Positions 5,860 to 62,260 of a stretch of 64,000 bases of DNA are shown here, one piece after another; positions within the stretch are counted from its first letter, which is position 1, and each line of letters opens with the position of its first letter. Made by a program: the position numbers and the translations under genes. A model generated the notes under the pieces. That model searched no databases and had not been told where the DNA came from. It worked only from the letters and a program-made list of their open reading frames with translations. Where the stretch lies: contig OX597822.1 in assembly GCA_951406725.2 (NCBI GenBank), forward strand, positions 32,054,001-32,118,000, in the 5' to 3' direction. This DNA comes from Octopus vulgaris. Its lineage: Eukaryota.

Positions 5860-6227
5860 TGTGTGTGTATGTGTATGTGTGTGTGTATGAGTGAGTATAT
5901 TTCAATAAATTCTTTCCGTCCAGAATTACTTTTGCTCCCAGTTGTACAACATATTTACAGAAGGCATATGACACAGGCTACGAGCCAAAAGCGGATCTAT
6001 TAAATCGAAGGAGCAGGCGACAACTCGCTGATGCTATAACTTATTTAAATCTATTTCTACATGACGAATTCTTCTACAGATTTCCATAAGAAATTAAATT
6101 CATGATCTGCTGAAAATATCATGAGAGAGCGCTGTGTTTGTGTGCGCATTATCAACGTTATACACGTAGTTGTCTTAATGTAAAACTGTTTAATGTGATT
6201 ACATTCGCATAATAATTACGTATTATG

Positions 6228-6385
6228 GCACAGGCGTGGCTGTATGGTAAGTAGCTTGCTTATAAACCACACGGTTCCAGATTCAGTGCCACGCAGGTGT
6301 CTCTTCTTCTATAGCCTCGGACCGACCAAACCCTTGTGAGTGGATTTGGTAGACGAAAATTGAAAGTAGGCTGTCATATACATAT
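6228..6385 (+). mobile_element. SINE family A, 5' half (interrupted by the Naiad PLE)
   Basis: GGCGTGGCTGTATGGTAAG...CCTTGTGAGTGGATTTGGTAGACG...CTGTCATATA. It ends where intact copies enter their central (AT)n tract. Confidence 0.85.
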
Positions 6386-6645
6386 TTAGCAGCTCTAACA
6401 AACAACTCGCAGCAACCTAAATCTATTCTCGATGCCTGCCTTTCTACTACACTTTTCCATTCCCAATTCCAAGCAACGCTAGCCCACCAACCGGTTACAA
6501 TTCCCAACTCCACCCATTCATTCACAATTTCAACGACGTTCACCTCCACAGCGCTACATATAAGCCTCAACATATACACCGGAGATACGCTTTCACAACC
6601 GTGCGGAAGGGTGAGAGTATACATTAAGTGTAGTGATGGGGCTCC
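6386..6645 (-). repeat. 260-bp inverted copy of 11756-12015 at the 5' end of the PLE
   Basis: Near-exact reverse complement. This is why ORFs 6283-6702(-) and 11672-12025(+) share the same peptide. Confidence 0.95.
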
Positions 6646-7969
6646 TCCATTCATTATTTTAAAGATGTTCGTTTCCAGAGCGGTTATATATTTTTTATAC
6701 ATATGTTAAGTTCCTTGGTAAAGTAATTTTGTTTGGTGTATATGTTGAGGCTTATATGTACTTGTGGGTGTGTGTGAGTGGGGTGGGTGTTTGTATTTGT
6801 TATGGGTGTGTGGTTTACGTGTGTGTATTTGTGTGTGAATGTATAGGTTAAAGGGATTGCTATATAAGTATGTTATAGTGTTTAGTAAAGGGAGGTTTTA
6901 TCATTTATGTTTTGTGAGTTTTAGCTTATCATGGTAGTTTTATAAAAGAATCCATTCATATTTTTTGTGTTTATTTGTCTGTGTGGGGTTGAGTGGGTTT
7001 TTGGAGTATATGTTGAGGTTTATATGTATGTATAGGTATGTGTAAGTGGTGTGGGTATTTGTATATGTCGTGGGTGTGTGGTTTATGTGTGTGTATTTGT
7101 GTGTGAATGTTTAGGCTAGGGGGATTGCTATATAGGTATGTTATAGAGTTTAGTAAAGGGAGATTTTATCATTATATGTTTTTATGAGTTTTGGTTTATC
7201 ATGGTAGGTTTGTTGAGGAATTCGTAGTAATTTGTGTCTATTTGCGATGTCTGTTGTTTTATTGCATTGTTTCATTCATAATTTTTAAGTAGTGTTCGTT
7301 TTACCAAGTGAATATAATTTTTAATTCCATTTATTCCATTTCTCCGTTCATAATTTTAAGTGATGTCCGTTTTCTAGAGCGTGAATGTGGGTTGTATGTG
7401 TGTGTGTGTGGGAGTATGAATTAGTATTGTGTTGAAGTATTTAGCTATTTTATTTATTTATAGTTGCCTAGACGTTTTTATGTGTATGTATAGGGATATA
7501 TTTATAGGTGTGTGATTTAGTGTATGTAGTTAGATATGGTTATATATAATTAGGTATATGTGTATGGGTGTATATATAGTTTATTATTATATTATTATTA
7601 TTTTTTTGTTTTGTTTTATATTTTATATTTTATATTTTATATTTTATATTTTATATTTTATATTTAATTGTTGATAGGTTTATTTTAGTTTATATATTGT
7701 TTATATATTGATTATATATGGATTATATATAGGTTATATATGGATTATATATTTATATTTTTTCATTCATACTTTAATTATTTTAAAATTATTATTTTAT
7801 ATTTTAAAATATTGATATTTTAGATTGGAAGTCCACCTGAAGATTGTCGATCAAGACAAGTAACAATTGTAGTGGCGGTTTTTTTGACTATTTATTAAAA
7901 TTTTATGTATTGATTAAGTCTTTCCTTGTTTGTTTTGCAAAATAGTGGTTTTGTCTCTAATAATATTTT
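6645..7969 (+). repeat. 5' pseudo-LTR (direct repeat of 12960-14284)
   Basis: About 1325 bp at offset 6315, with only a handful of substitutions seen by eye. Confidence 0.95.
7833..7875 (+). ncRNA. Type I hammerhead ribozyme in the 5' pLTR, core mutated (GAAA>GTAA)
   Basis: CCAC-CTGAAGA-TTGTC-gatcaa-GACAA-GTAA-CAATTG-TA-GTGG. Confidence 0.75.
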
Positions 7970-8106
7970 AATATTTTACTATAAAATTGGATTTAATCCT
8001 AAATCTGATTTTTTCCCTGTAAATTTGGATTTATTCCCTAATATTTATTATTTATATAATATTGATAATTTTGTATATTGAGTGTAATACCTCAATTTCG
8101 TAATTT

Positions 8107-10627
8107 ATGGATTTTACAGGTAAGATAGAACCGCTGTTTTGGGATTCATCTTTGAAAGATATTCCTATTCCTTCTAGAAAGGAATTTATCTTGAAACTTG
8201 TTAATAATGTTAAAGATTTTATTTCTAGAATTAAATGGAAAGCTTTTTACTATAATTTTTATTTATTTAATGATATTGATAGTAGGAATGATAATTTTAC
8301 CTCTAAATTTAAATCTAGAAAGGAACCTCCATTTAATAAAGAATTACAATTACTTGAAGATAGTATATGGAAGGTGGTAAAAAATATTGAATTCCATAAA
8401 TACCCAAATAGAAATAATGAATATTTAAGGAATTTAGCAATTAAAATTAAAGATATGAGAAATATGGATGGTATTATAGTACAATCTGATAAAACAAGGA
8501 ACCTATATAAATTAGATGTTAAATTATATGATAAACTATTAGGAAAAGAAATAATTAAAAAATATAAAATTGTTCCAGATGATATTCTTTATAATATTTA
8601 TAAGGCCTCTAAAGTAGTAATGTTAAAATATGAGTTGGATAATAAAACTGAACCTTATGTACCTTTGCACCCCAGAATTACTCTTAAAGACCATAAAGAT
8701 AATTTTTATTCAGACCCTAAAGTTAGATTAATTTGCCCATGTAAATCGGACCTAGGTAAATTAAGTAAATTTATTTTAGATAAATATATTGATAAGTTAA
8801 ATAAATTTAATTATTTAAAATTATGGTTTAGTAATAATAATACATTGAAATGGTTTAATAATATTAAAGATAAAAATCGTTATAAATTTATTCAAATAGA
8901 TATAGATAATTATTATTCTTCTATTAATGAAATTGTGTTTAATAAAGCGCTTATTTTCGCAATGAATAAAGTGGGTATGTCACGGGAAGAAGTTAATGTA
9001 ATTAAAATGGCTAGGAAATCGCTAATTAAATATAAAAATAAATTATGGGCTAGGAATGATACTAGAGATTGTTTTGATATACCTATGGGAGCACCAGATT
9101 CTGCACAGGCTACTGATTTAGTAGGTATTTTTCTTTTATCTGAACTCCAATTAGAAAATCTTAAGATAGAGGGTGGTTTATATAGAGACGATCTTCTACT
9201 AGTTACAAAGAATTGTACTAATAGGAATCTAGAAGTATATAAGAAAAAATTATATAGTTTCTTTAAAAGATATGGTTTAAGTATTACTATATATAAGGAG
9301 AATTATAATGTTAATTATTTAGATGTTAATTTTAATCTTATTACAGGTAAAACACAACCATATCATAAACTTAATGAGAACCTTAGATATATAAATGTTA
9401 ATAGTAATCACCCATTTTCTATTAAAAAATCGTTGATTAATAATATAAGTAAACGTATTTCATTACTCTCTTATGATATAGAGATTTTTAATAAACATGC
9501 TAATTATTATAATGAGGCCCTTAGAGGGGCAGGTTATAATAGGAATATTAAATTTTTTAATATTAGTGATAAAGATTTAATTGATAATTTTCGAGATACT
9601 TCTAATAATAATTATAATTTTGTTAGGTTTAGTGGTATAAATAATAGATATTATAAAAAAAAATAATAAAAATGATAAAAATATAAATAAGAATAATAAT
9701 AATAATAATAAATATAATAATAATAATAATATAAATAAGAATAATAAAAATAAAAATAAATTTAATAATTATTATAATAATTATATTGATAAAATTAATA
9801 ATATTAATAATTCCTTAAATGATGTACATAGATATAATTTTGATAATAATTTTAATAAAATAAAGAATTATAAATATATTTATAATAATGATAATAATAA
9901 TAAGGTTAATAAGAATAAAATTTGGTTAATAGTTCCTTATGGAGATCAAGTAAAAACGAATATTATTAAAGAGATTTTAGATGTTATAGAACTATTTATT
10001 AGAGATAATCGTAAATATAGAAACATTTTCTCTTTTAATGATTTTGGAGTTGGTTATTCTACCACTAATAATGTTGGTAACATTATTTCTTCATTTAATA
10101 AATATAAACTGAATAATTTTTATAAAAAGAAATTATTTGATAATAATATTAATAATGATAAGACTTATATTAATTGTACATGTAGAGATAAATCTAATTG
10201 TATATTAAATAATAATTGTGATATTAACGATGTAGTGTATAAATGTATAGTTACATTACATGATAATAACTTTAAGAATAATAATTACCCAAAAGCGGTT
10301 TATATAGGTTCTACTTCCTCAAAAATAAAACTAAGAATCGCACAACATATGAATTCTTTTAAAAATAAAAACTTAATCAACTCAACCGGACTTAGTAAGT
10401 ACATTTGGAGTCTTAAATCACTAAATATTAATTATAGTTTAATTTGGGAAATAATTTGTAAAACTAAATCATATACTATAGGAGCTAATTGTTGTTATTT
10501 ATGCTCTAATGAGTTTAAAGAAATTTTATTTTATAAGTATGATAATTTACTTAATACTGGTGAAGAGCGCAAAATAAAATGCAGACATAAGTTACTTTAC
10601 CTATATAATAAGTTTCATGATAAATAG
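8107..10627 (+). CDS. Naiad-type PLE polyprotein (RT + C-terminal GIY-YIG endonuclease), one +1 frameshift at the A9 run 9655-9663; about 839 aa if repaired
   Basis: SLKDIPIP..RIKWKAF, QSDKTRN, KVRLICPCKS, IDIDNYYSSI, IPMGAPDS, LYRDD, NYLDV, SNHPFSI. After the shift the frame is stop-free through KIWLIVPY, CTC..C..C, VVYKC..VYIGST..RIAQH..SF, CYLC..E, LLN..E..CRH. Confidence 0.92.
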
Positions 10628-12959
10628 CAATAATAGTTCCCTATTAGATTACTTTAGTTTAGTTTAAATTAGTTTAGATAATATATTTTTTGGTTATGTA
10701 GTCTAGGCTTTAATTATAGTTAGTCTTTATTGATATTTCTTTGTTTTAATTAGTTCATTTTTAATGTATATTAATATAACAATTTATGGTATGTTAAAAC
10801 TTTAATAATTTATATTAGGTTTTTTTTTCTTTATTTATATATTTTTTTATTTTTATTTTATTTTATTATGTATTTTTATTATGCATTTGTTATATGTATT
10901 TTGGAGGATATATTTATATGTTGATGGGTGTTATTTAGTGGTGTTTTTATTGAGTTTTGTATGTATGTGTGAATGTTTACGATCCCTTTGTTTTTTGTTT
11001 TTTATTTGGTATGTTGAATTGACAGATTCTATTTGGGTATTGTCTGTTATAATAAAGTATACACACCCATAATAAATATAAGTGCCCACTTCATTCGCGC
11101 GTACCTGGAATTGCATGTGAGCCTCAAAATATACACCAAACGGCCACTCCCGCCCCATACGGACTAATTTACACATACATCCCCAAAAATGGGCTTAATC
11201 CCACTTACACCAATCATATGTATACAATTATACACACTAGAATAATACATAACTAACCCAAATATACAGAACATATTAAAAATCACCAACAAACAACCAT
11301 CACAAATGAAACCTACACCCATACAATGACAAAACTCCCCCTCCATACCCAATTTACACCCACATAGCAATCCCAATATATTCATCCATACATGGACGCA
11401 CGTGCGTGAAGCACGTGCACACAATAAATACGTACAACCCCCCAATACACACTCATATACATACGTATTAAGCTCGACATCCACAGCAATACGCATACAC
11501 CCACTCACACCCAGATGGGTGAATTGCACAACCAGGGAACGCACACACACATGTGCGTATTTTGATTGTGCAACTCGCCCATATGCATGTATGCGGGCGC
11601 GATTACATTGTTGCACATATCGAGCCTAACTAGCATGCATATGTACATGTGAGGGGGTACACGTACATGCCGTGCGCGTGTACCCCCTGCATTTATACCC
11701 GTGCGTGAATATACACATGGAGACTACCACACAGGTACAAATGTGTATAGTAATGGGAGCCCCATCACTACACTTAATGTATACTCTCACACATCCGCAC
11801 GGTTGTGAAAGCGTATCTCCGGTGTATATGTTGAGGCTTATATGTAGCGCTGTGGAGGTGAACGTCGTTGAAATTGTGAATGAATGGGTGGAGTTGGGAA
11901 TTGTAACCGGGTGGTGGGCTAGCGTTGCTTGGAATTGGGAATGGAAAAGTGTAGTAGAAAGGCAGGCATCGAGAATAGATTTAGGTTGCTGTGAGTTGTT
12001 TGTTAGAGCTGCTAAGATGAGCTAAAGCTCATAAATGTATATAATAATTTATTATGGTAGTTTTATTAAAGAATCCATTCATAATAAATTTTTTTTAAGT
12101 AGTGATGGTTTGCCACGTGGATATAGTTTTTAGTTCCATTTATTCTATTTCTCCATTCATAATTTTAAATGACGTTTACTTTCCATGGCGCGTATTCTTT
12201 TTTTACATAAGTTATATTTCTATGGTAACGTAATTTTGGTTTGATTTTATTAACGGCTAAGAATTTAATTTCACTTCATAATTTGAAACTGATATGTAAG
12301 TATGTATTTTATTTCTCCTTATGTCATATTGTTATTTTTGATATTCTGGTTAATTACGATGTATTTAATGTTGTTTTTTATTGGAGTGTTTATGTATATG
12401 AGATTGTGTGTGACTTTTTAGTTGTATAATTTATTTATCTGTATGAGTGTGGGTGTGTAAATATTGTTGTATATATCGAGTTTAGTGAGTATGTATATGC
12501 GTATATTGAGGGAGTATATGTATCTGTTGTGTGTGTGTGTTTTGCGTGTGTGTGTGTTTGTGTGTGAATGTGTATATGGGTTTGTTATTTAGGTTTTTGG
12601 GATGTATGTGTTAATTTGTCTGTGTGGGGAGGGAGTGGGTTTTTGGTGTATATTGAGGTTTATAAGTTAGTATAGGTATGTGTATAAGTTGTGGGTCTGT
12701 GGTTTACGTGTGTGGTTTTTTGTGTGTGAATGTTTAGGTTAGGGGAATTGCTATATAGGTTTGTTATAGAGTTTAGCAAAGGGATATTTTATCGTTATAT
12801 GTTTTTAAGAGTTTTGGTTTATCATGGTTTTTTTAGGGAATTCGTGGTAATTTGTCTATTTTCGATGTTGGTTGTTTTATTACATTGTTTCATTCATAAT
12901 TTTTGAGTGGTGTTCGTTTTGCCACGTGAATATTATTTTTAATTCCATTTATTCCATTT

Positions 12960-14284
12960 CTCCATTCATTATTTTAAAGATGTTCGTTTCCAGAGCGGTT
13001 ATATATTTTTTATACATATGTTAAGTTCCTTGGTAAAGTAATTTTGTTTGGTGTATATGTTGAGGCTTATATGTACTTGTGGGTGTGTGTGAGTGGGGTG
13101 GGTGTTTGTATTTGTTATGGGTGTGTGGTTTACGTGTGTGTATTTGTGTGTGAATGTATAGGTTAAAGGGATTGCTATATAAGTATGTTATAGTGTTTAG
13201 TAAAGGGAGATTTTATCATTTATGTTTTGTGAGTTTTAGCTTATCATGGTAGATTTATAAAAGAATCCATTCATAATTTTTGTGTTTATTTGTCTGTGTG
13301 GGGTTGAGTGGGTTTTTGGAGTATATGTTGAGGTTTATATGTATGTATAGGTATGTGTAAGTGGTGTGGGTATTTGTATATGTCGTGGGTGTGTGGTTTA
13401 TGTGTGTGTATTTGTGTGTGAATGTTTATGTTAGGGGGATTGCTATATAGGTATGTTATAGAGTTTAGTAAAGGGAGATTTTATCATTATATGTTTTTAT
13501 GAGTTTTGGTTTATCATGGTAGGTTTGTTGAGGAATTCGTAGTAATTTGTGTCTATTTGCGATGTCTGTTGTTTTATTGCATTGTTTCATTCATAATTTT
13601 TAAGTAGTGTTCGTTTTACCAAGTGAATATAATTTTTAATTCCATTTATTCCATTTCTCCGTTCATAATTTTAAGTGATGTCCGTTTTCTAGAGCGTGAA
13701 TGTGGGTTGTATGTGTGTGTGTGTGGGAGTATGAATTAGTATTGTGTTGAAGTATTTAGCTATTTTATTTATTTATAGTTGCCTAGACGTTTTTATGTGT
13801 ATGTATAGGGATATATTTATAGGTGTGTGATTTAGTGTATGTAGTTAGATATGGTTATATATAATTAGGTATATGTGTATGGGTGTATATATAGTTTATT
13901 ATTATATTATTATTATTTTTTTGTTTTGTTTTATATTTTATATTTTATATTTTATATTTTATATTTTATATTTTATATTTAATTGTTGATAGGTTTATTT
14001 TAGTTTATATATTGTTTATATATTGATTATATATGGATTATATATAGGTTATATATGGATTATATATTTATATTTTTTCATTCATACTTTAATTATTTTA
14101 AAATTATTATTTTATATTTTAAAATATTGATATTTTAGATTGGAAGTCCACCTGAAGATTGTCGATCAAGACAAGAAACAATTGTAGTGGCGGTTTTTTT
14201 GACTATTTATTAAAATTTTATGTATTGATTAAGTCTTTCCTTGTTTGTTTTGCAAAATAGTGGTTTTGTCTCTAATAATATTTT
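12960..14284 (+). repeat. 3' pseudo-LTR
   Basis: Direct repeat of 6645-7969; ends at (AT)n. Confidence 0.95.
14148..14190 (+). ncRNA. Minimal type I hammerhead ribozyme with intact core in the 3' pLTR
   Basis: Stem I CCAC/GTGG; core CTGAAGA; stem II TTGTC/GACAA; GAAA; palindromic CAATTG stem III; GUA cleavage triplet. Confidence 0.88.
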
Positions 14285-14329
14285 TTATATATATATATAT
14301 ATATATATAAATATATATATGTATATTTG

Positions 14330-14552
14330 TGTGGGGGTGTATGTTTTGTGTGTCTGTGTTTGTCCCCCACCATCGCTTGACAGCTGATGTTGGAGTGTTC
14401 ACGTCCCTGTACCATAGCGGTTCGGGAAAAGAAACCGATCAAATAAGTACTAGACTTACAAGGAATAAGTCCTGCGGTCGATTTGTTTGACTGAAGGCGG
14501 TTCTCCAGCATGGCCATACTCAAATGAGTGAAACAAATAAAAGAATAAAAGA
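14330..14552 (+). mobile_element. SINE family A, 3' half (continuation of 6228-6385)
   Basis: TGTGTTTGTCCCCCACCATCGCTTGACA...GGCGGTTCTCCAGCATGGCC...GAAACAAATAAAAGAATA. Confidence 0.85.
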
Positions 14553-14591
14553 ATAGATATAACATACACACATACATGCATATATACATAC

Positions 14592-14622
<31 letters not shown>

Positions 14623-15009: not shown

Positions 15010-15347
15010 TGATTGCCAACATAATATGGCTCTCTATGGAAGAGACGGTGATACTGTTCTTTTAGTCCCAAGAAGCACCGTTTCTAGCTGGCTATACGAC
15101 ACACTATACGTGTCCTTATAATTCCGAACAGGGAATTCAGCATCCCCAACTAGCACAAGACAACATCTGGGCAATAACCCTGAAACTAGTCTACGGTGGC
15201 CGTCTTGTGCTTGGTTGAGATGCTAAATTCCCTGTTCGAAATATAAGGACACAGTGTGTCGTATAGCCAGCTAGAAGCGACGCTTCTTGAGGCTAAAACA
15301 ACAGTAACAACGTCCCTTCAAGGATAGCCATGTTATGTTGGGCAATT
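15010..15347. repeat. Diverged inverted repeat with ~150-bp arms between (TA)n tracts
   Basis: 15010-15161 versus 15202-15347. The spacer contains GGG-caataa-CCC-T-GAAAC-TA-GTC, which resembles the 3' half of an HHR. Confidence 0.8.
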
Positions 15348-15390: not shown

Positions 15391-15680
15391 TATAAAAGAA
15401 GTTTTGAAAATGCAATTTTAAAAGATGTATATTTACTTGACCGGTTTCACTTTTTTAGAAACAAATTGTCAAAAGTAACGTGTAAAAGCTTGGTTGTGTT
15501 AGGTACTGTGTGACAACCAGTAAGTAACACAGCCAAGCTTTTACACGTTACTTTTGACAATTTGTTTCTAAAAAAAGTGAAACCGGTCAAGTAAATATAC
15601 ATATTTTAAAATTGCTTTTTCAAACCTTCTTTCATATATAATTCCACTCGTGCGGTACCTTACAACTCCACATAGTTATA
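15391..15680. repeat. Near-perfect inverted repeat with ~110-bp arms and a degenerate HHR in each arm
   Basis: 15391-15501 versus 15525-15640. The right arm has TTACTT-TTGACAA-...-GAAA-CCGG-TC-AAGTAA at 15548-15594. Same family as 62300-62445. Confidence 0.85.
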
Positions 15681-27138: not shown

Positions 27139-27179
<41 letters not shown>

Positions 27180-27332
27180 CGGGTTTCTTTCTATTTTCGT
27201 CTGCCAAATCAGCTCAAAAGGCTTAGGTCAGCCCGAGGGTATAGTACGAGACACTTGCCTAATGTGCCACATAGTGGGACTGAACCCTGAACCATGTGGT
27301 TGGTAAGTATGCTACTTAACACACAGCCACTC
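26925..27332 (-). mobile_element. SINE family A, full length
   Basis: Head, central (AT)n and tail all present. Confidence 0.85.
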
Positions 27333-33345: not shown

Positions 33346-33487
33346 AATATGGAACAGTAATAGAGAGAAAGTTCATGGTACAGCATTATATATATTTGAA
33401 AGTATGAATAGTCATAGCTTTTATTTTAATCTTAATAAATGTTTCCAGTGAGTTACTCTGATATGAGTTTCAAGCCTTTTGTAGGCT

Positions 33488-33896
33488 TTTATCTGTTTCA
33501 GTCATTTGACTGCGGCCATGCTGGAGCACCGCCTTTAGTCGAGTAAATCTACCCCACGACTTATTCTTTGTAAGCCTAGTACTCATTCTATTGGTCTCTT
33601 TTTGCCGAACCGCTAATTTACGTGGACATAAACACATCGGTTGTTAAGCGATGGTGGAAGGACAAACACAGCCACAAAAACTCACTAACACACACATACA
33701 TACATCCACCTATCCATACATACATATATACGACGGGCCTCTTTCAGTTTCTGTCCACCAAATCCACTCACAAGGCTTTGGTCGGCCCGAGGCTATAATA
33801 GAAAACACTTGCGCAAGGTATCACGCAGTGGGACTGAACCCGGTACCATGTGGTCGGTAAGGAAGCTTCTTACCACACAGCTACTCCTGCGCCTAT
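33488..33896 (-). mobile_element. SINE family A, full length
   Basis: Complete head, CORE-like CCTTG..CAAGTG segment, central simple repeat and tail. Confidence 0.9.
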
Positions 33897-35209
33897 ATTT
33901 CGTTTGATTAAATTGATTTTAAACCGCTCTTTCAGTTGCTGGTTAAGTGTGGCAGATTAATGAACTAAATGCCTTAGAATTTAGGATGGCTTATTAGGAA
34001 CTTGTGGTGACATGTAAAACTCAATATTGATAGAGATAATTCTTTTTATAAAGCTAATATTCTATAGAGAGATAATATAATATAACACTTCAGTGATGAA
34101 CATGAAACATTGCATTATTTTAGTTTCTTCCTCTATTGCACAAAAGATCAATATGATGAGCAGGTGGAATACCAAGTATCACTTACTATTCTGAGCAAAA
34201 ATAGATTTTGTAAACAATAATTCAAACTTCACATCGATGTTTTACAATGAACAGTACGTAAAAAATATCGCCGTACAAGGCATTCAGTGTATTTGTCATT
34301 GTGTAACAATTAAAGCAGTTATGCATTAAGACATAAAAAAAAGAGTTAGGTAGCAAAATGTACGAGACCTTTGCGATACACAGTCAAGATTAATTAACTT
34401 CAATCATGACGTCAATACTCACACAAAGAAAGTATAGACATCAACACTTCCTATTGAATAGTCTGAAAGAAATCAATATCTAATTAAGTACCAATCACGA
34501 AACATTTACAATTCAAAACAGGATAGATTTTGTTAATAATGTTTTACGATTAACTGGTGAAGAAGACAACACAGTAAACTACTCTTGATAAGTTGTTGTT
34601 GTTGTTTTTGATTATAGAGAGGTCAGCTCTTTTCTACTAGAAATATAATCAAAGGTGTGTCTTCTATATGTTGAGTATTTCCTTTACAGAGTGGACCTAA
34701 GGTTAAGTATTACCTAAATATGTCATTTTAATAAAACGGCGTTATCTGAAGGATATTTGTTTATTGTTTCTAGCAGGTTGAGTAAACAAGGTGGTTCCTT
34801 AGTTGACTCGAAATTCTACAGTACTAATTCAGAAATTACTAACGTAAATTTTAATGATGCCAATCGCACAAATATATAAAACTTTGCAATTAAAATTTTG
34901 ATACGGGGAGCAATTTCTACGAGATGTTTCTATCTGACATGTTTGTCCATGTACCAGATCATAAATGTCTTGGCCAGGTTTTGAGTTTTAGAGATAAAGT
35001 GACAGTTGTCCATCTATGCAAGTATCCCTCTCTACAATGAACAGTGTTCGAAGATCACTAATGTTAGGGGGACTGATGGTTTCCTGAAACTGAAGAGTGC
35101 AAAAGGATACGCTTCAATAAAAAGCAGCCAGTGACAGGTGTGTTTAACAGGACGTTTAAATAGACGATAGCATTTTTTAAACCTAAAAACTAAGAATTAA
35201 AACAAACAT

Positions 35210-36423: not shown

Positions 36424-36484
<61 letters not shown>

Positions 36485-36524
36485 GTATGTATGAATGTAT
36501 GTATGTATGTGTGTGTATACGTTT

Positions 36525-36730
36525 GTGTGTCTGTGTTTGTCCCCCCAACATCGCTTGACAACCGATGCTAGTTGTGTTTACGTCCCCGTAACTTAGCGGT
36601 TCTGCAAAAGTGACCGATAGAATAAGTACTAGGCTTACAAAGAATAAGTCTTGGGGTCGATTTGCTCGACTAAAGGCGGTGCTCCAGCTTGGCCGCAGTC
36701 AAACGACTGAAACAAGTAAAAGAGAGTAAA
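36525..36730 (+). mobile_element. SINE family A, 3' half
   Basis: Matches 14330-14552. Confidence 0.85.
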
Positions 36731-36800
36731 AAAAAGAGATATATAAATGAATAGATACGTACATAAGTACATACATACATAACCATACACACACACACAG

Positions 36801-50050: not shown

Positions 50051-50469
50051 TTAACATTTGCGCACCGCTGAACAGAATTTCTAAAAAAAAAAAATACATA
50101 GTATGACACGAGAGCTGAAGCAATCAAGTGGCTGGCACACAGTTTGGAAATCCAATTTGATTTCAGAAGACAATTGATAAATATATACTTGTGGTGACAA
50201 AGAAATGGTAAGTTTTGGTGCGGGTGAGTGGAGAAAACCAAGTGTTTACTGTAGAAGTCAAATATTTATTGAAAAATATGACAGGTACATGACACGTTGG
50301 AACCGTTAAAAAGTGTGTTGTTTTTTTCTTCCATTCGTGCAAAATAGATTATAAATGGAGTTGAAGACAACAAGGTGACTTCATTGAAATCGAGTTCACT
50401 CTACGTGTCTGTTATTGTTGTTGTTATTTACGTTCAAATCGTAATCATTCTATCTTTACATATATCTCT

Positions 50470-50885
50470 TCTAGTCTTTTATTCGTTTCAGTCATTTGAC
50501 TGTGGCCATGCTGGAGCACCGCTTTTAGTCGAGCAAATCGACCCTAGGACTTATTCTTTGTAAGCTCAGTACTTATTCTATCAGTCCCTTTTGCCGATCC
50601 GCTAAGTTACAGGGACGTAAACACACCAGAATCGGTTGTCAAGTGATATTGGTGGGGTGGGGTGGGGACAAACACAGACACACAAGCACATACATACACG
50701 TACATATACATACATATATACGACGGGCTTCTTTTAGTTTCCGTCTACCAAATCCACTCACAAGGCTTTGGTCGATCCGAGGCTATAGTAGAAGACACTT
50801 TCGCAAGGTGCCACGCAGTGGGACTGAACCCGGAACCATGAGGTTGGTAAGCAAACTACTTACCACACAGCCACTCCTACGCCTA
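50470..50885 (-). mobile_element. SINE family A, full length
   Basis: Complete copy. Confidence 0.9.
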
Positions 50886-57499: not shown

Positions 57500-58690
<1,191 letters not shown>

Positions 58691-61088: not shown

Positions 61089-61604
61089 GCATATAATAGA
61101 AATATGTTACAAAATGAAAATAGAAACTACACGTGGAAATGTAAGGGGAAAGTAAGAAAAATCAACGAAAATGCACATTACAAACAAAAAAAGAAAAGGC
61201 TTTTTATGACTATATATATATATATAGGAATAGATAGATGTATGTATGTATGCATGTATGTACGTATGGCTGACTGACTGGCTGGCTGTATGTATGGATG
61301 GATATACATGATGGAGTAAACACCATAGTTTACAATCAATTTCCTAAACACAATCCCTACTTTCCAATTCAACTTCACAATTCATTAAACTCTAAATCCA
61401 TTCCATCATGGGACAGTATGCTTATAATCTTCCAGCAACTCATCAAATGTGATATTTGTGTAGCTATACAGGAATCTTTTGATATGATTAGTTTCAAAAC
61501 AATTAGGCGTAATTGTCAATAGAAATTTTAATTACTGCTTACGTAATTGATCAGATATTGAAGATATCGCATACATATATTTATTCCTCTATTTGTTCCT
61601 TTAT

Positions 61605-61833
61605 TCCTATATTCTATTATTTGTTTCAGCCATTTCACTGCAACCATGTTGGTGTACAGCTTTTTAGTTGGAGACTTAGAACCCAGGATTTATTCTCTCT
61701 AAGCCTAATACTTATTCTATCGGTCTCTTTTGCTGAATCACTAACTTATTGGGACGATAACACACCAACATCAGTTGTCAAGCCGTGGTAGGGGGACAGA
61801 CGCATACACAAAAATACATACATGCGTACATAC

Positions 61834-61875
<42 letters not shown>

Positions 61876-62040
61876 ACGAGCTTCTTTTAGTTTCCGTCTA
61901 CCAAATCCACTCACAAGGATTTGGTCAGCTCGAGGCCATATTAATAGAAACTTGCCGAAGCTGCCACGCAGTGGTACTGAACCCGGTAGCATATGGTTGG
62001 GAAGCAAGCTACTTACCAAACAACCACGCCAGCGCCTATA
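61605..62040 (-). mobile_element. SINE family A, full length
   Basis: Complete diverged copy. Confidence 0.85.
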
Positions 62041-62260
62041 CAGAAATTTATAAATGCATGCTACATTCTGCGTGTAAAAAAACTGCGACTAGCATAACCA
62101 CTGGGCACCTTCTGTTCTGTTGCCGTGAGTTGGTGTTAGTAATGTCAAACACTGTAACCTGCATGCTGTTTGTATGGATACATATATAGTTGTATCCATG
62201 TATGTAAGTGCGTATGTAGGTATACATATATTTATACGTATGTATGCTTGTCTGTCTGCA

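Follow-up and report, generated by a model that had tools for sequence, protein, structure and literature searches.

A self-folding 3' extension and a sense-strand C shortage in an octopus Penelope-like retroelement, with a possible genomic record of RNA editing

A-to-I editing of RNA is normally transient, and ADAR-hypermutated inverted repeats of avian retroviruses were reportedly described by Hajjar and Linial in 1995 and by Felder in 1994. Fixation of such edits in DNA has been reported from a few retrovirus variants: in avian retroviruses nearly 50% of the A's of an inverted repeat had become G, and reverse transcription passed the change into DNA (PMC12925331, excerpt). At the level of RNA, Porath et al. 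(2017; PMC5625713, excerpt) place octopus among the two strongest hyper-editing signals and report a massively edited Penelope in lizard, and an APOBEC-like C>U drift is described for coronavirus plus-strand RNA (PMC7831814, excerpt). Penelope-like retroelements (PLEs) of the Hydra clade have units that are "generally <3 kb", Hydra-1_Obim measuring 2507 bp with its hammerhead at 2403 (Craig et al. 2021, PMC8557442, excerpt). Our literature search returned no report of such fixation in a transposon's master lineage. The octopus element described here is, judged by its sequence, a Hydra-clade PLE with a self-folding and unusually long 3' tail, in which both C loss and a candidate trace of editing can be followed.

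Within the window (the whole stretch of 64,000 nucleotides of Octopus vulgaris DNA analysed), the full PLE unit occupies 7970..14284 (+), 6315 nt or 6.3 kb, and sits in a (TA)n run inside an older dispersed repeat; the flanks of the insertion join up over the TA run in the dispersed-repeat copy at 61560-62060. The reverse transcriptase (RT) part of the ORF (8104..9666, +, frame 1) carries KWK at 44, DKT at residue 129 and YRDD at 360, and its open frame stops at a frameshift near a poly-A run (9641-9666). A second frame (9641..10627, +) holds an Asn-rich linker, CxCx5C and a GIY-YIG endonuclease with YIG at residue 221, CxxC and CxH, the three cysteine- or histidine-containing patterns occurring once each in that frame. 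DKT stands in place of DKG, as in the Hydra clade, and the N-terminal KWK of this copy is RWK in the consensus of 22 aligned proteins. Homologues have the same order of RT and then C-terminal GIY-YIG, and this position of the endonuclease rules out a Naiad/Chlamys PLE, in which GIY-YIG is N-terminal. A Pfam search of both ORF frames gave no RT or GIY-YIG match, and four pattern matches in viral contigs included none that was related. A type I hammerhead ribozyme is predicted at 14148..14190 (+) from a hand-drawn structure in which 11/11 pairs are Watson-Crick (CUGAAGA core, 5-bp stem II, GAAA, short palindromic stem III, GUA site, 4-bp stem I); an Rfam search left it undetected and the MFE fold differs from the drawing, while hammerhead-like motifs occur in related elements also. 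Upstream of the unit lies a 5' pseudo-LTR (6645..7969, +), a partial tandem copy of 12960-14284 (99.5% over 1325 nt, 6 differences), and abutting it is the 5'-inverted piece of the insertion (6386..6645, -), the reverse complement of 11756-12015 (98.5% over 260 nt, 4 differences). In the hammerhead core of the pseudo-LTR, A at 7861 has become T.

The domain order, DKT, CxCx5C, CxxC, CxH, the CUGAAGA-core hammerhead, the (TA)n target, the partial tandem with pseudo-LTR and the 5'-inverted piece are all shared with the Hydra clade as excerpted from PMC8557442. A short unit with one ORF is usual in that clade without being obligatory. The octopus element departs from that clade in its unit length, in the split of this copy's ORF between two frames, and further in its internal fold-backs, extreme sense C loss and Asn-rich linker; Hydra-1_Obim, judged by eye from an excerpt of the supplement, belongs to a separate family (PMC8557442). 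From the stop codon at 10627 to the element end at 14284 is 3.66 kb, in agreement with the 3.6-kb 3' extension of a preliminary description. Stop and hammerhead lie 3525 nt apart here; across the 35 relatives whose ORF reaches at least 680 aa and is followed by the core motif, the median distance is 131 nt, and the units of relatives are 2.4-2.8 kb. A PLE unit can thus, it appears, more than double in size by taking in its own inverted pieces. Two of the 35 relatives gave distances of 1108 and 2892 nt, possibly through chance motifs.

The preliminary description had the extension built from one repeat unit. The copies are genuine, for all four of the motifs it quoted in pairs were located and in every unit-to-unit alignment 0/200 dinucleotide shuffles reached the observed score (z 9-39; 28 for INV:DIR and 17 for INV:U1), but there are two units, A of ~230 nt and B of ~210 nt, besides unique sequence rich in AT, and one more inverted arm had been overlooked; the last 1325 nt are those of the pseudo-LTR. 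The inverted and direct copies that opened the array in that account are both present, with refined limits. The inverted block INV (11055..11549, -) comprises INV1, an A unit (11320-11549), Ib, a B start (~11225-11319), and INV2, another A start (11055-11200), and DIR (11552..11790, +), a C-rich direct A copy, is the second arm of a fold-back centred near 11550. The overlooked arm, MID (11847..12048, -), is an inverted B unit with a G-rich sense strand that forms G·U pairs with B copies; before it, 11821-11846 repeats 26 nt of the A start exactly as they stand at 13050-13075. B0 (12026..12245, +) is a direct B copy and the fold-back partner of MID (106 bp, 31 of them G·U, in the MFE fold), and a direct G/T-rich array with 5% C follows at 12391..13905 (+), made up of U1a, U1b+B1, U2+partial B, U3+B3 and a diverged U4. 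That DIR and MID are a single contiguous old copy was considered and rejected, the end of DIR being INV-like and the start of MID like the downstream copies. All nucleotide statistics below come from one genomic copy and ~220 aligned sites at 60-70% identity, and three-way counts were made with gapped and tied columns excluded (216 of 229).

On the sense strand the fold-back 11306-11790 (INV:DIR) has 59 A·C and 15 G·U mismatches (p=2.6e-7), and because of this excess of A·C a long rod forms on the antisense strand only, where alone this fold-back is G·U-paired. Antisense 11300-11790 folds into 195 pairs at -232.8 kcal/mol; sense RNA of the same stretch reaches -150.5 kcal/mol, with only local stems beside an inner hairpin of ~75 nt, so that the long hairpin earlier placed at ~11380-11720 holds for the antisense strand and shrinks to its inner part on the sense strand. 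Two weak Rfam matches to this inner hairpin, far under the gathering score, led to rejection of a miRNA precursor. MID:B1 and MID:B3 mismatches favour G·U on the sense strand (63 and 69 versus 3), which bears out the expected G·U-rich duplexes and leaves the two hairpins opposite in strand polarity. The suggestion that the inverted arm could also pair with downstream copies is upheld by the sense MFE fold of 11050-13700, with INV1:U1a at 137 bp and INV2:U3 at 104 bp; in the same fold DIR, which contains a perfect 11-bp G-C-rich local stem, folds on itself (60 bp). The strong skew toward G·U over A·C in each fold-back, folding z-scores as low as -9.4 (antisense) and -6.8 (sense), and the presence of the extension family-wide, in 4/4 sequencing runs, would fit selection for long RNA duplexes that put up with G·U pairs. 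Ordinary transitions to G·U would then persist and A·C pairs be purged, and the duplexes might serve, for instance, in packaging, in folding of the RT template or in siRNA self-silencing from a sense or antisense hairpin. We consider such selection improbable, however, given that transversion mismatches are freely tolerated (19/227 in INV:DIR, 17-26 in MID:B), that the two hairpins have opposite polarity, that relatives without such an extension still transpose, and that private A>G in the arm, at ~39% versus a background of ~5% per branch, is an acceleration and not a tolerance.

The strand-asymmetric substitution first noted in the repeats is strong. DIR has C where the downstream copy has T, against the mirror case, at ratios of 36:1 (U1), 27:1 (U2) and 28:0 (U3). 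C's are present in DIR, as the claim that hairpin copies keep their C's has it, but the inverted arm does not simply keep them: in the unit frame it has T at 32/48 of the sites with DIR C and downstream T. It had further been proposed that pairing spares C's, so that an unflipped direct hairpin copy would have kept its ancestral C's by shielding them from single-strand deamination. Sense DIR does fold on itself, the C's shared by both arms are concentrated at the inner hairpin (6 of 13 within the first 30 nt beside the loop), and more C is kept in the B copies that have a partner, where 17-19 of 55-68 C's are common with the inverted B arm versus only 2 common with both arms in A copies; some shielding of C by pairing is possible. 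As the sole cause, shielding is nonetheless very improbable indeed: in the long hairpin 32 of the 48 DIR C's with T downstream lie opposite A, not G, DIR A opposite inverted-arm G outnumbers the reverse 22:6, contrary to expectation, and C>T without a flip is the poorest of eight directional models in both data sets (AIC 1258 versus 1209 in the majority set, delta AIC ~49).

C depletion spans the whole element. The C/(C+T) ratio of twofold synonymous sites is 0.08 here versus 0.59±0.13, minimum 0.29, in 72 relatives (72/77 related loci, 5 dropped for want of an ORF of at least 400 aa), and since the loss covers synonymous sites of the ORF it is not peculiar to the repeats. The sense strand of relatives is C-rich (fourfold C 26%), and over the aligned part Ala, Pro, Thr, His and Gln are higher in 172/172 homologues. 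Because none of the 72 relatives has so low a C fraction, the shortage suggests that a mutational or restriction process affects a single PLE family while sparing the octopus sister families P0024 and P0085 and the neighbouring LINE, a CR1-like RT elsewhere in the window with balanced C 31 : T 34. The message-sense direction, the reach into amino-acid composition and a possible weakening in paired regions are shared with coronavirus C>U drift (PMC7831814, excerpt), but the octopus element lacks a 5'-neighbour preference: the synonymous C fraction is 0.07-0.13 after any base, which departs from APOBEC/AID-type contexts (TC, CC, WRC, AC). C is spared before C (14/36 versus 25/398) and rarest before A. 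The main text of PMC5889660 makes no mention of octopus or cephalopods and names no cephalopod AID/APOBEC-like enzyme. Among the 40 family differences listed out of 212, sorted by eye, recent changes lean to C>T (7 non-CpG versus 3 G>A, p=0.03) and show no excess of A>G. A-to-I editing was rejected as the cause of C loss: the chemistry is wrong, and ORF G/(G+A), at 0.21, is not raised but lies within the relatives' 0.12-0.72, with no A>G signal in the ORF by this comparison.

The link to A-to-I editing drawn in the preliminary description thus fails for sense C>T, which such editing cannot give, but it can account for an A>G surplus in the fold-back arms. At 13 sites DIR and the downstream copies have A and the inverted arm G, versus 1 in the mirror case (p=0.002), beyond what C>T can produce, and A>G affects 14/32 sites in the hairpin arm versus 1/17 in INV2 outside the hairpin (p=0.008). 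Counted as A>G, changes are alike in both arms of each duplex (48%/44%, p=0.72; 24%/24%, p=1.0; 47%/32%, p=0.054), and counted as C>T they are not (66/36, p=0.002; 92/12, p=8e-7; 74/53, p=0.03), the polarity in these percentages being assumed except for INV1. The 5' neighbour of A>G changes is skewed (U/A 95:103 versus C/G 19:46, p=0.009), and this U>A>C pattern could reflect ordinary TpA/CpG avoidance; the depletion of 5'-G, a hallmark of ADAR, is not significant (8:17 versus 74:78, p=0.14), unlike its universal occurrence in the transcripts of PMC5625713 (excerpt). Ib shows 7 private A>G versus 10 unchanged, yet has no partner in the present hairpin, and in the unit frame it gained 1 C, the figure for INV1 and INV2 being 18-27%.

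The reading we favour, at a probability of roughly 0.55, is that the extension grew from the element's own inverted and tandem pieces under two influences, sense C loss and ADAR hyper-editing fixed by reverse transcription; the editing is likely, on the comparison of arms in genomic DNA. Every inversion, like the fresh piece at 6386-6645, would give the transcript a long stretch of perfect dsRNA, host ADAR would edit ~45% of the A's of both arms and leave G·U pairs, and the edited RNA, reverse transcribed, would found the next master copy. The INV/DIR hairpin would afterwards have been flipped as a block, its G·U pairs now standing as sense-strand A·C, and with such a flip many of the C's apparently kept in DIR would be mirrored A>G edits, gained rather than surviving. 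A separate process, whether C>U deamination or an RT/polymerase bias during the RNA cycle, would drain C from the sense strand. A two-process model of this kind has AIC 1208.9 with 11 parameters and, when ancestral composition is held at fixed plausible values, an A>G dose of 0.54-0.61, or 42-46%, and it demands that downstream copies lose C >10x faster than hairpin arms. A>G alone is rejected (AIC 1229.7), and a further round of editing directed at A·C fits no better (1210.5-1215.4). Counting against the favoured reading are the private A>G of Ib, the non-significant 5'-G depletion and the local stem of DIR, more easily explained by ancestral C's than by random T>C.

The same stem is consistent with a single process of sense C>T acting on nested inversions, in which DIR and MID would preserve the state of a C-rich ancestor, segments would have kept their C's (as sense G) and lost G's while inverted, and ADAR would be unneeded. 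C>T is independently evident in the ORF, relatives do have a C-rich sense strand, recent differences lean the same way, and with one extra inverted stem and free ancestral composition the model ties at AIC 1209.5 versus 1208.9, with 1318.6 versus 1319.8 in a second data set. We regard this history as rather unlikely, though it deserves serious weight, since it requires an ancestor of 73% GC as well as the extra inversion and falls behind by 3, 15 and 27 lnL when ancestral composition is fixed at three plausible values, the two-process model then having two fewer parameters. It must also accept very unequal C loss between the arms of one duplex, 92% versus 12%. Three small and suggestive tests run against it too: INV1 and INV2 both have C at 1/39 sites only, the C's of INV2 are unlinked to those of DIR (OR 1.3, p=0.74), and at 14 C/T sites none of the C's of MID recurs in Ib.

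Fixed editing, as favoured here, would place the element beside the avian retroviruses in dose, with close to half of inverted-repeat A's turned to G (PMC12925331, excerpt), but those cases are single variant proviruses, and this would be a high-copy germline master lineage with more than one round, read from arm comparison only. It would likewise join self-folding ADAR substrates such as the lizard Penelope and the palindromic Xenopus Harbinger (PMC5625713, excerpt), with the difference that their signal lies in RNA-DNA differences and that of the octopus element in genomic DNA. A stronger version, that the master lineage of an active, high-copy germline element repeatedly wrote ADAR hyper-editing (~45%, one step per fold-back, the edited copy founding the generation after it) into its own DNA alongside a family-specific C>U process that hits CpA and spares CpC across the sense strand, protein included, is put forward tentatively, as something we would sooner doubt than assert. 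If true, the fold-back arms would be a datable genomic record of cephalopod germline RNA editing, and the C loss a pointer to a new deaminase or an error-biased Penelope RT. The family allows a direct test, the ancestry of its arms being known, its genomic copies apparently numerous and its host group one of very strong editing. In the sequencing runs none of the contigs covers the entire stretch, and contig depth is not equal to copy number, copies being apparently many; none of the runs carrying the element is recorded as RNA. Run X7, which we guess to be RNA and do not take as evidence, had A>G at 23 and T>C at 32 sites, versus 14-15 and 21-27 elsewhere.

The repeat and fold-back feature lies within a retroelement insertion at 6386-14284, a Penelope-like element (PLE) of the already known Hydra clade. 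Its nearest named proteins come from Octopus bimaculoides, O. vulgaris, O. sinensis and Argonauta, which suggests an octopus host. In self-comparison, 6645-7969 matches 12960-14284 (99.5%) and 6386-6645 matches the reverse complement of 11756-12015 (98.5%), the layout of partial-tandem pseudo-LTR with 5'-inverted piece known from Penelope-like elements (PMC8557442). A type I hammerhead motif is predicted at 14148-14190 (+); in the 5' pseudo-LTR copy (7861) the conserved GAAA has become GTAA, the 3' copy being intact. Both flanks rejoin across a (TA)n run, and the element sits in the TA run of one copy of a dispersed SINE-like repeat (6218-6388 and 14286-14600), further copies of which lie near 27164-27330, 33486-33903, 36460-36781, 50456-50878, 57774-58286 and 61602-62036.

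Related loci with a full ORF (n=35) have a median stop-to-hammerhead distance of 131 nt; here it is 3525 nt. Likewise, the unit of 6315 nt (7970-14284) compares with 2386-2847 nt in 16 related loci and with 2507 bp for the single octopus Hydra family seen in the PMC8557442 supplement. Given that contigs of four public runs from three organisms fill 30, 30, 30 and 29 of 30 bins across 10000-13900, none spanning the whole extension, the extension is a feature of the family and not a private accident. No description of a Hydra element of such length, or with such fold-backs or strand bias, was found in the open literature, Repbase lying outside the search; an O. vulgaris repeat annotation counts 31 Penelope-like families, which may include the present one, with no such detail in its accessible text (PMC13282606).

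Two repeat units make up the copies in the extension: A, as INV1 (11320-11549, -), INV2 (11055-11200, -), DIR (11552-11790, +) and the downstream U1a, U1b, U2, U3 and U4 (12391-13905, +), and B, as MID (11847-12048, inverted), B0 (12026-12245, +), B1, B3 and partial copies. The observation in the preliminary description is real and in part confirmed: the repeats are significant (z 9-39), and the direct hairpin copy, said to carry C where downstream copies carry T, does so 36:1. The proposed fold-back forms a rod of 195 pairs only as antisense RNA; its sense-strand mismatches are A·C (59) rather than G·U (15). Folding of sense RNA predicts INV1:U1a, MID:B0 and INV2:U3 duplexes, with DIR folding on itself, and MID:B has the opposite polarity to INV/DIR (sense-strand G·U, 63-69 vs 3). 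An exact 26-nt match joins otherwise diverged parts (11821-11846 = 13050-13075), a sign of either a recent template switch or motif conservation; most A copies hold a related core.

The sense strand is poor in C throughout the element. Third positions of the ORF (8104-10627) hold T 396, A 234, G 73 and C 39, with twofold C (26/274) below twofold G (41/195; p=7e-4) and T above A at fourfold sites (p=0.002). Twofold C is 0.08, against 0.59 (minimum 0.29) in 72 relatives with C-rich sense strands, and twofold G falls within their range; C-demanding residues are more numerous in 172/172 homologues compared, octopus sister families included. As a control, a LINE-type reverse transcriptase fragment (2114-2920, -; Pfam RVT_1, E 5e-31) has balanced third positions. 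Consequently, the change is polarised as sense-strand C>T and is confined to this PLE family. The low-complexity linker inserted between RT and endonuclease (9630-9930) is rich in Asn/Lys/Ile/Tyr where the O. bimaculoides relative P0024 is rich in Thr/Asn/His/Pro, a difference to be expected if C>T reshaped it. Leftover synonymous C in the ORF is enriched before C (14/36, 39%, vs 25/398, 6%; p=2e-7) and rarest before A (3%), and no 5'-neighbour preference was found there. RIP has a comparable 3'-neighbour preference, but the RIP-like context here is confined to one strand; the APOBEC contexts listed in the accessible part of PMC7831814 are not matched. Among 40 of 212 family differences, with the family majority taken as ancestral, non-CpG C>T exceeds G>A 7:3 (p=0.03 given composition), and 7 of the 10 differences between duplicated parts of the insertion are transversions. 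Candidate causes are deamination of the RNA, misinsertion by RT or during second-strand synthesis, and DNA deamination linked to transcription. The chemistry of PLE RT is known in outline only (PMC11167929).

C>T in one arm and A>G in the opposite arm can leave the same G·U mismatch, so that a pair by itself has no polarity; polarity was taken from patterns across three sequences, in the order DIR, inverted arm and majority of the downstream copies. AGA outnumbers GAA 13 to 1, an excess not attributable to C>T because C>T in either orientation cannot yield G when read along the unit. The A>G excess is 14/32 in the hairpin arm vs 1/17 in INV2, and arm rates are equal in all three duplexes if read as A>G, unequal if read as C>T. 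These patterns point to probable ADAR editing of the fold-back arms beside C>T drift, an explanation slightly better than even (roughly 55%). A likelihood fit of both processes with symmetric arms gives AIC 1209 and an A>G level of 42-46%, in agreement with the 'nearly 50%' in avian retrovirus inverted repeats (PMC12925331, as far as accessible). Octopus hyper-editing ranks among the strongest known, and lizard Penelope repeats are targets (accessible part of PMC5625713); no report of a transposon lineage in which ADAR edits became fixed was found in the open literature. The initial interpretation, that an unflipped copy keeps C through pairing, falls behind at 1258, as do C>T with a flip (1229-1243) and A>G alone (1230). 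A single process, C>T with an extra inverted stem, reaches 1209.5, but requires a 73%-GC ancestor and trails by 3-27 lnL under realistic ancestral compositions. Against editing, 5'-G depletion fails significance; Ib, the start of B at about 11225-11319 (-), which lacks a pairing partner today, has an A>G excess and next to no unit-frame C; a perfect G-C stem lies within DIR; quicker C loss in unpaired copies is still needed for the fits; and no recent A>G excess appears among the 40 of 212 family differences. Selection for structure of the extension is a minor rival, and no function has to be assumed for the extension.

PLE integration yields inverted pieces beside tandem copies, and the 260-nt inversion in this insertion is a fresh example. 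Readthrough of such a junction in a tandem transcript, followed by inclusion in a hammerhead-bounded unit, might then enlarge the unit and supply a perfect fold-back, which ADAR would edit heavily, the resulting G's being fixed via reverse transcription. The G·U-rich duplex left behind would be a poorer ADAR substrate, which would explain the episodic look of editing; a later inversion may have moved the INV/DIR hairpin to the opposite strand. Inverted pieces also lie in or near the element at related Hydra-like loci L024, L033, L049 and L006, and another (L018:1932-2669) carries a tandem repeat of ~123 nt internal to its ORF. Just 3' of the present element, at 15030-15340 and 15400-15630, are two more inverted-repeat pairs, MITE-like by eye.
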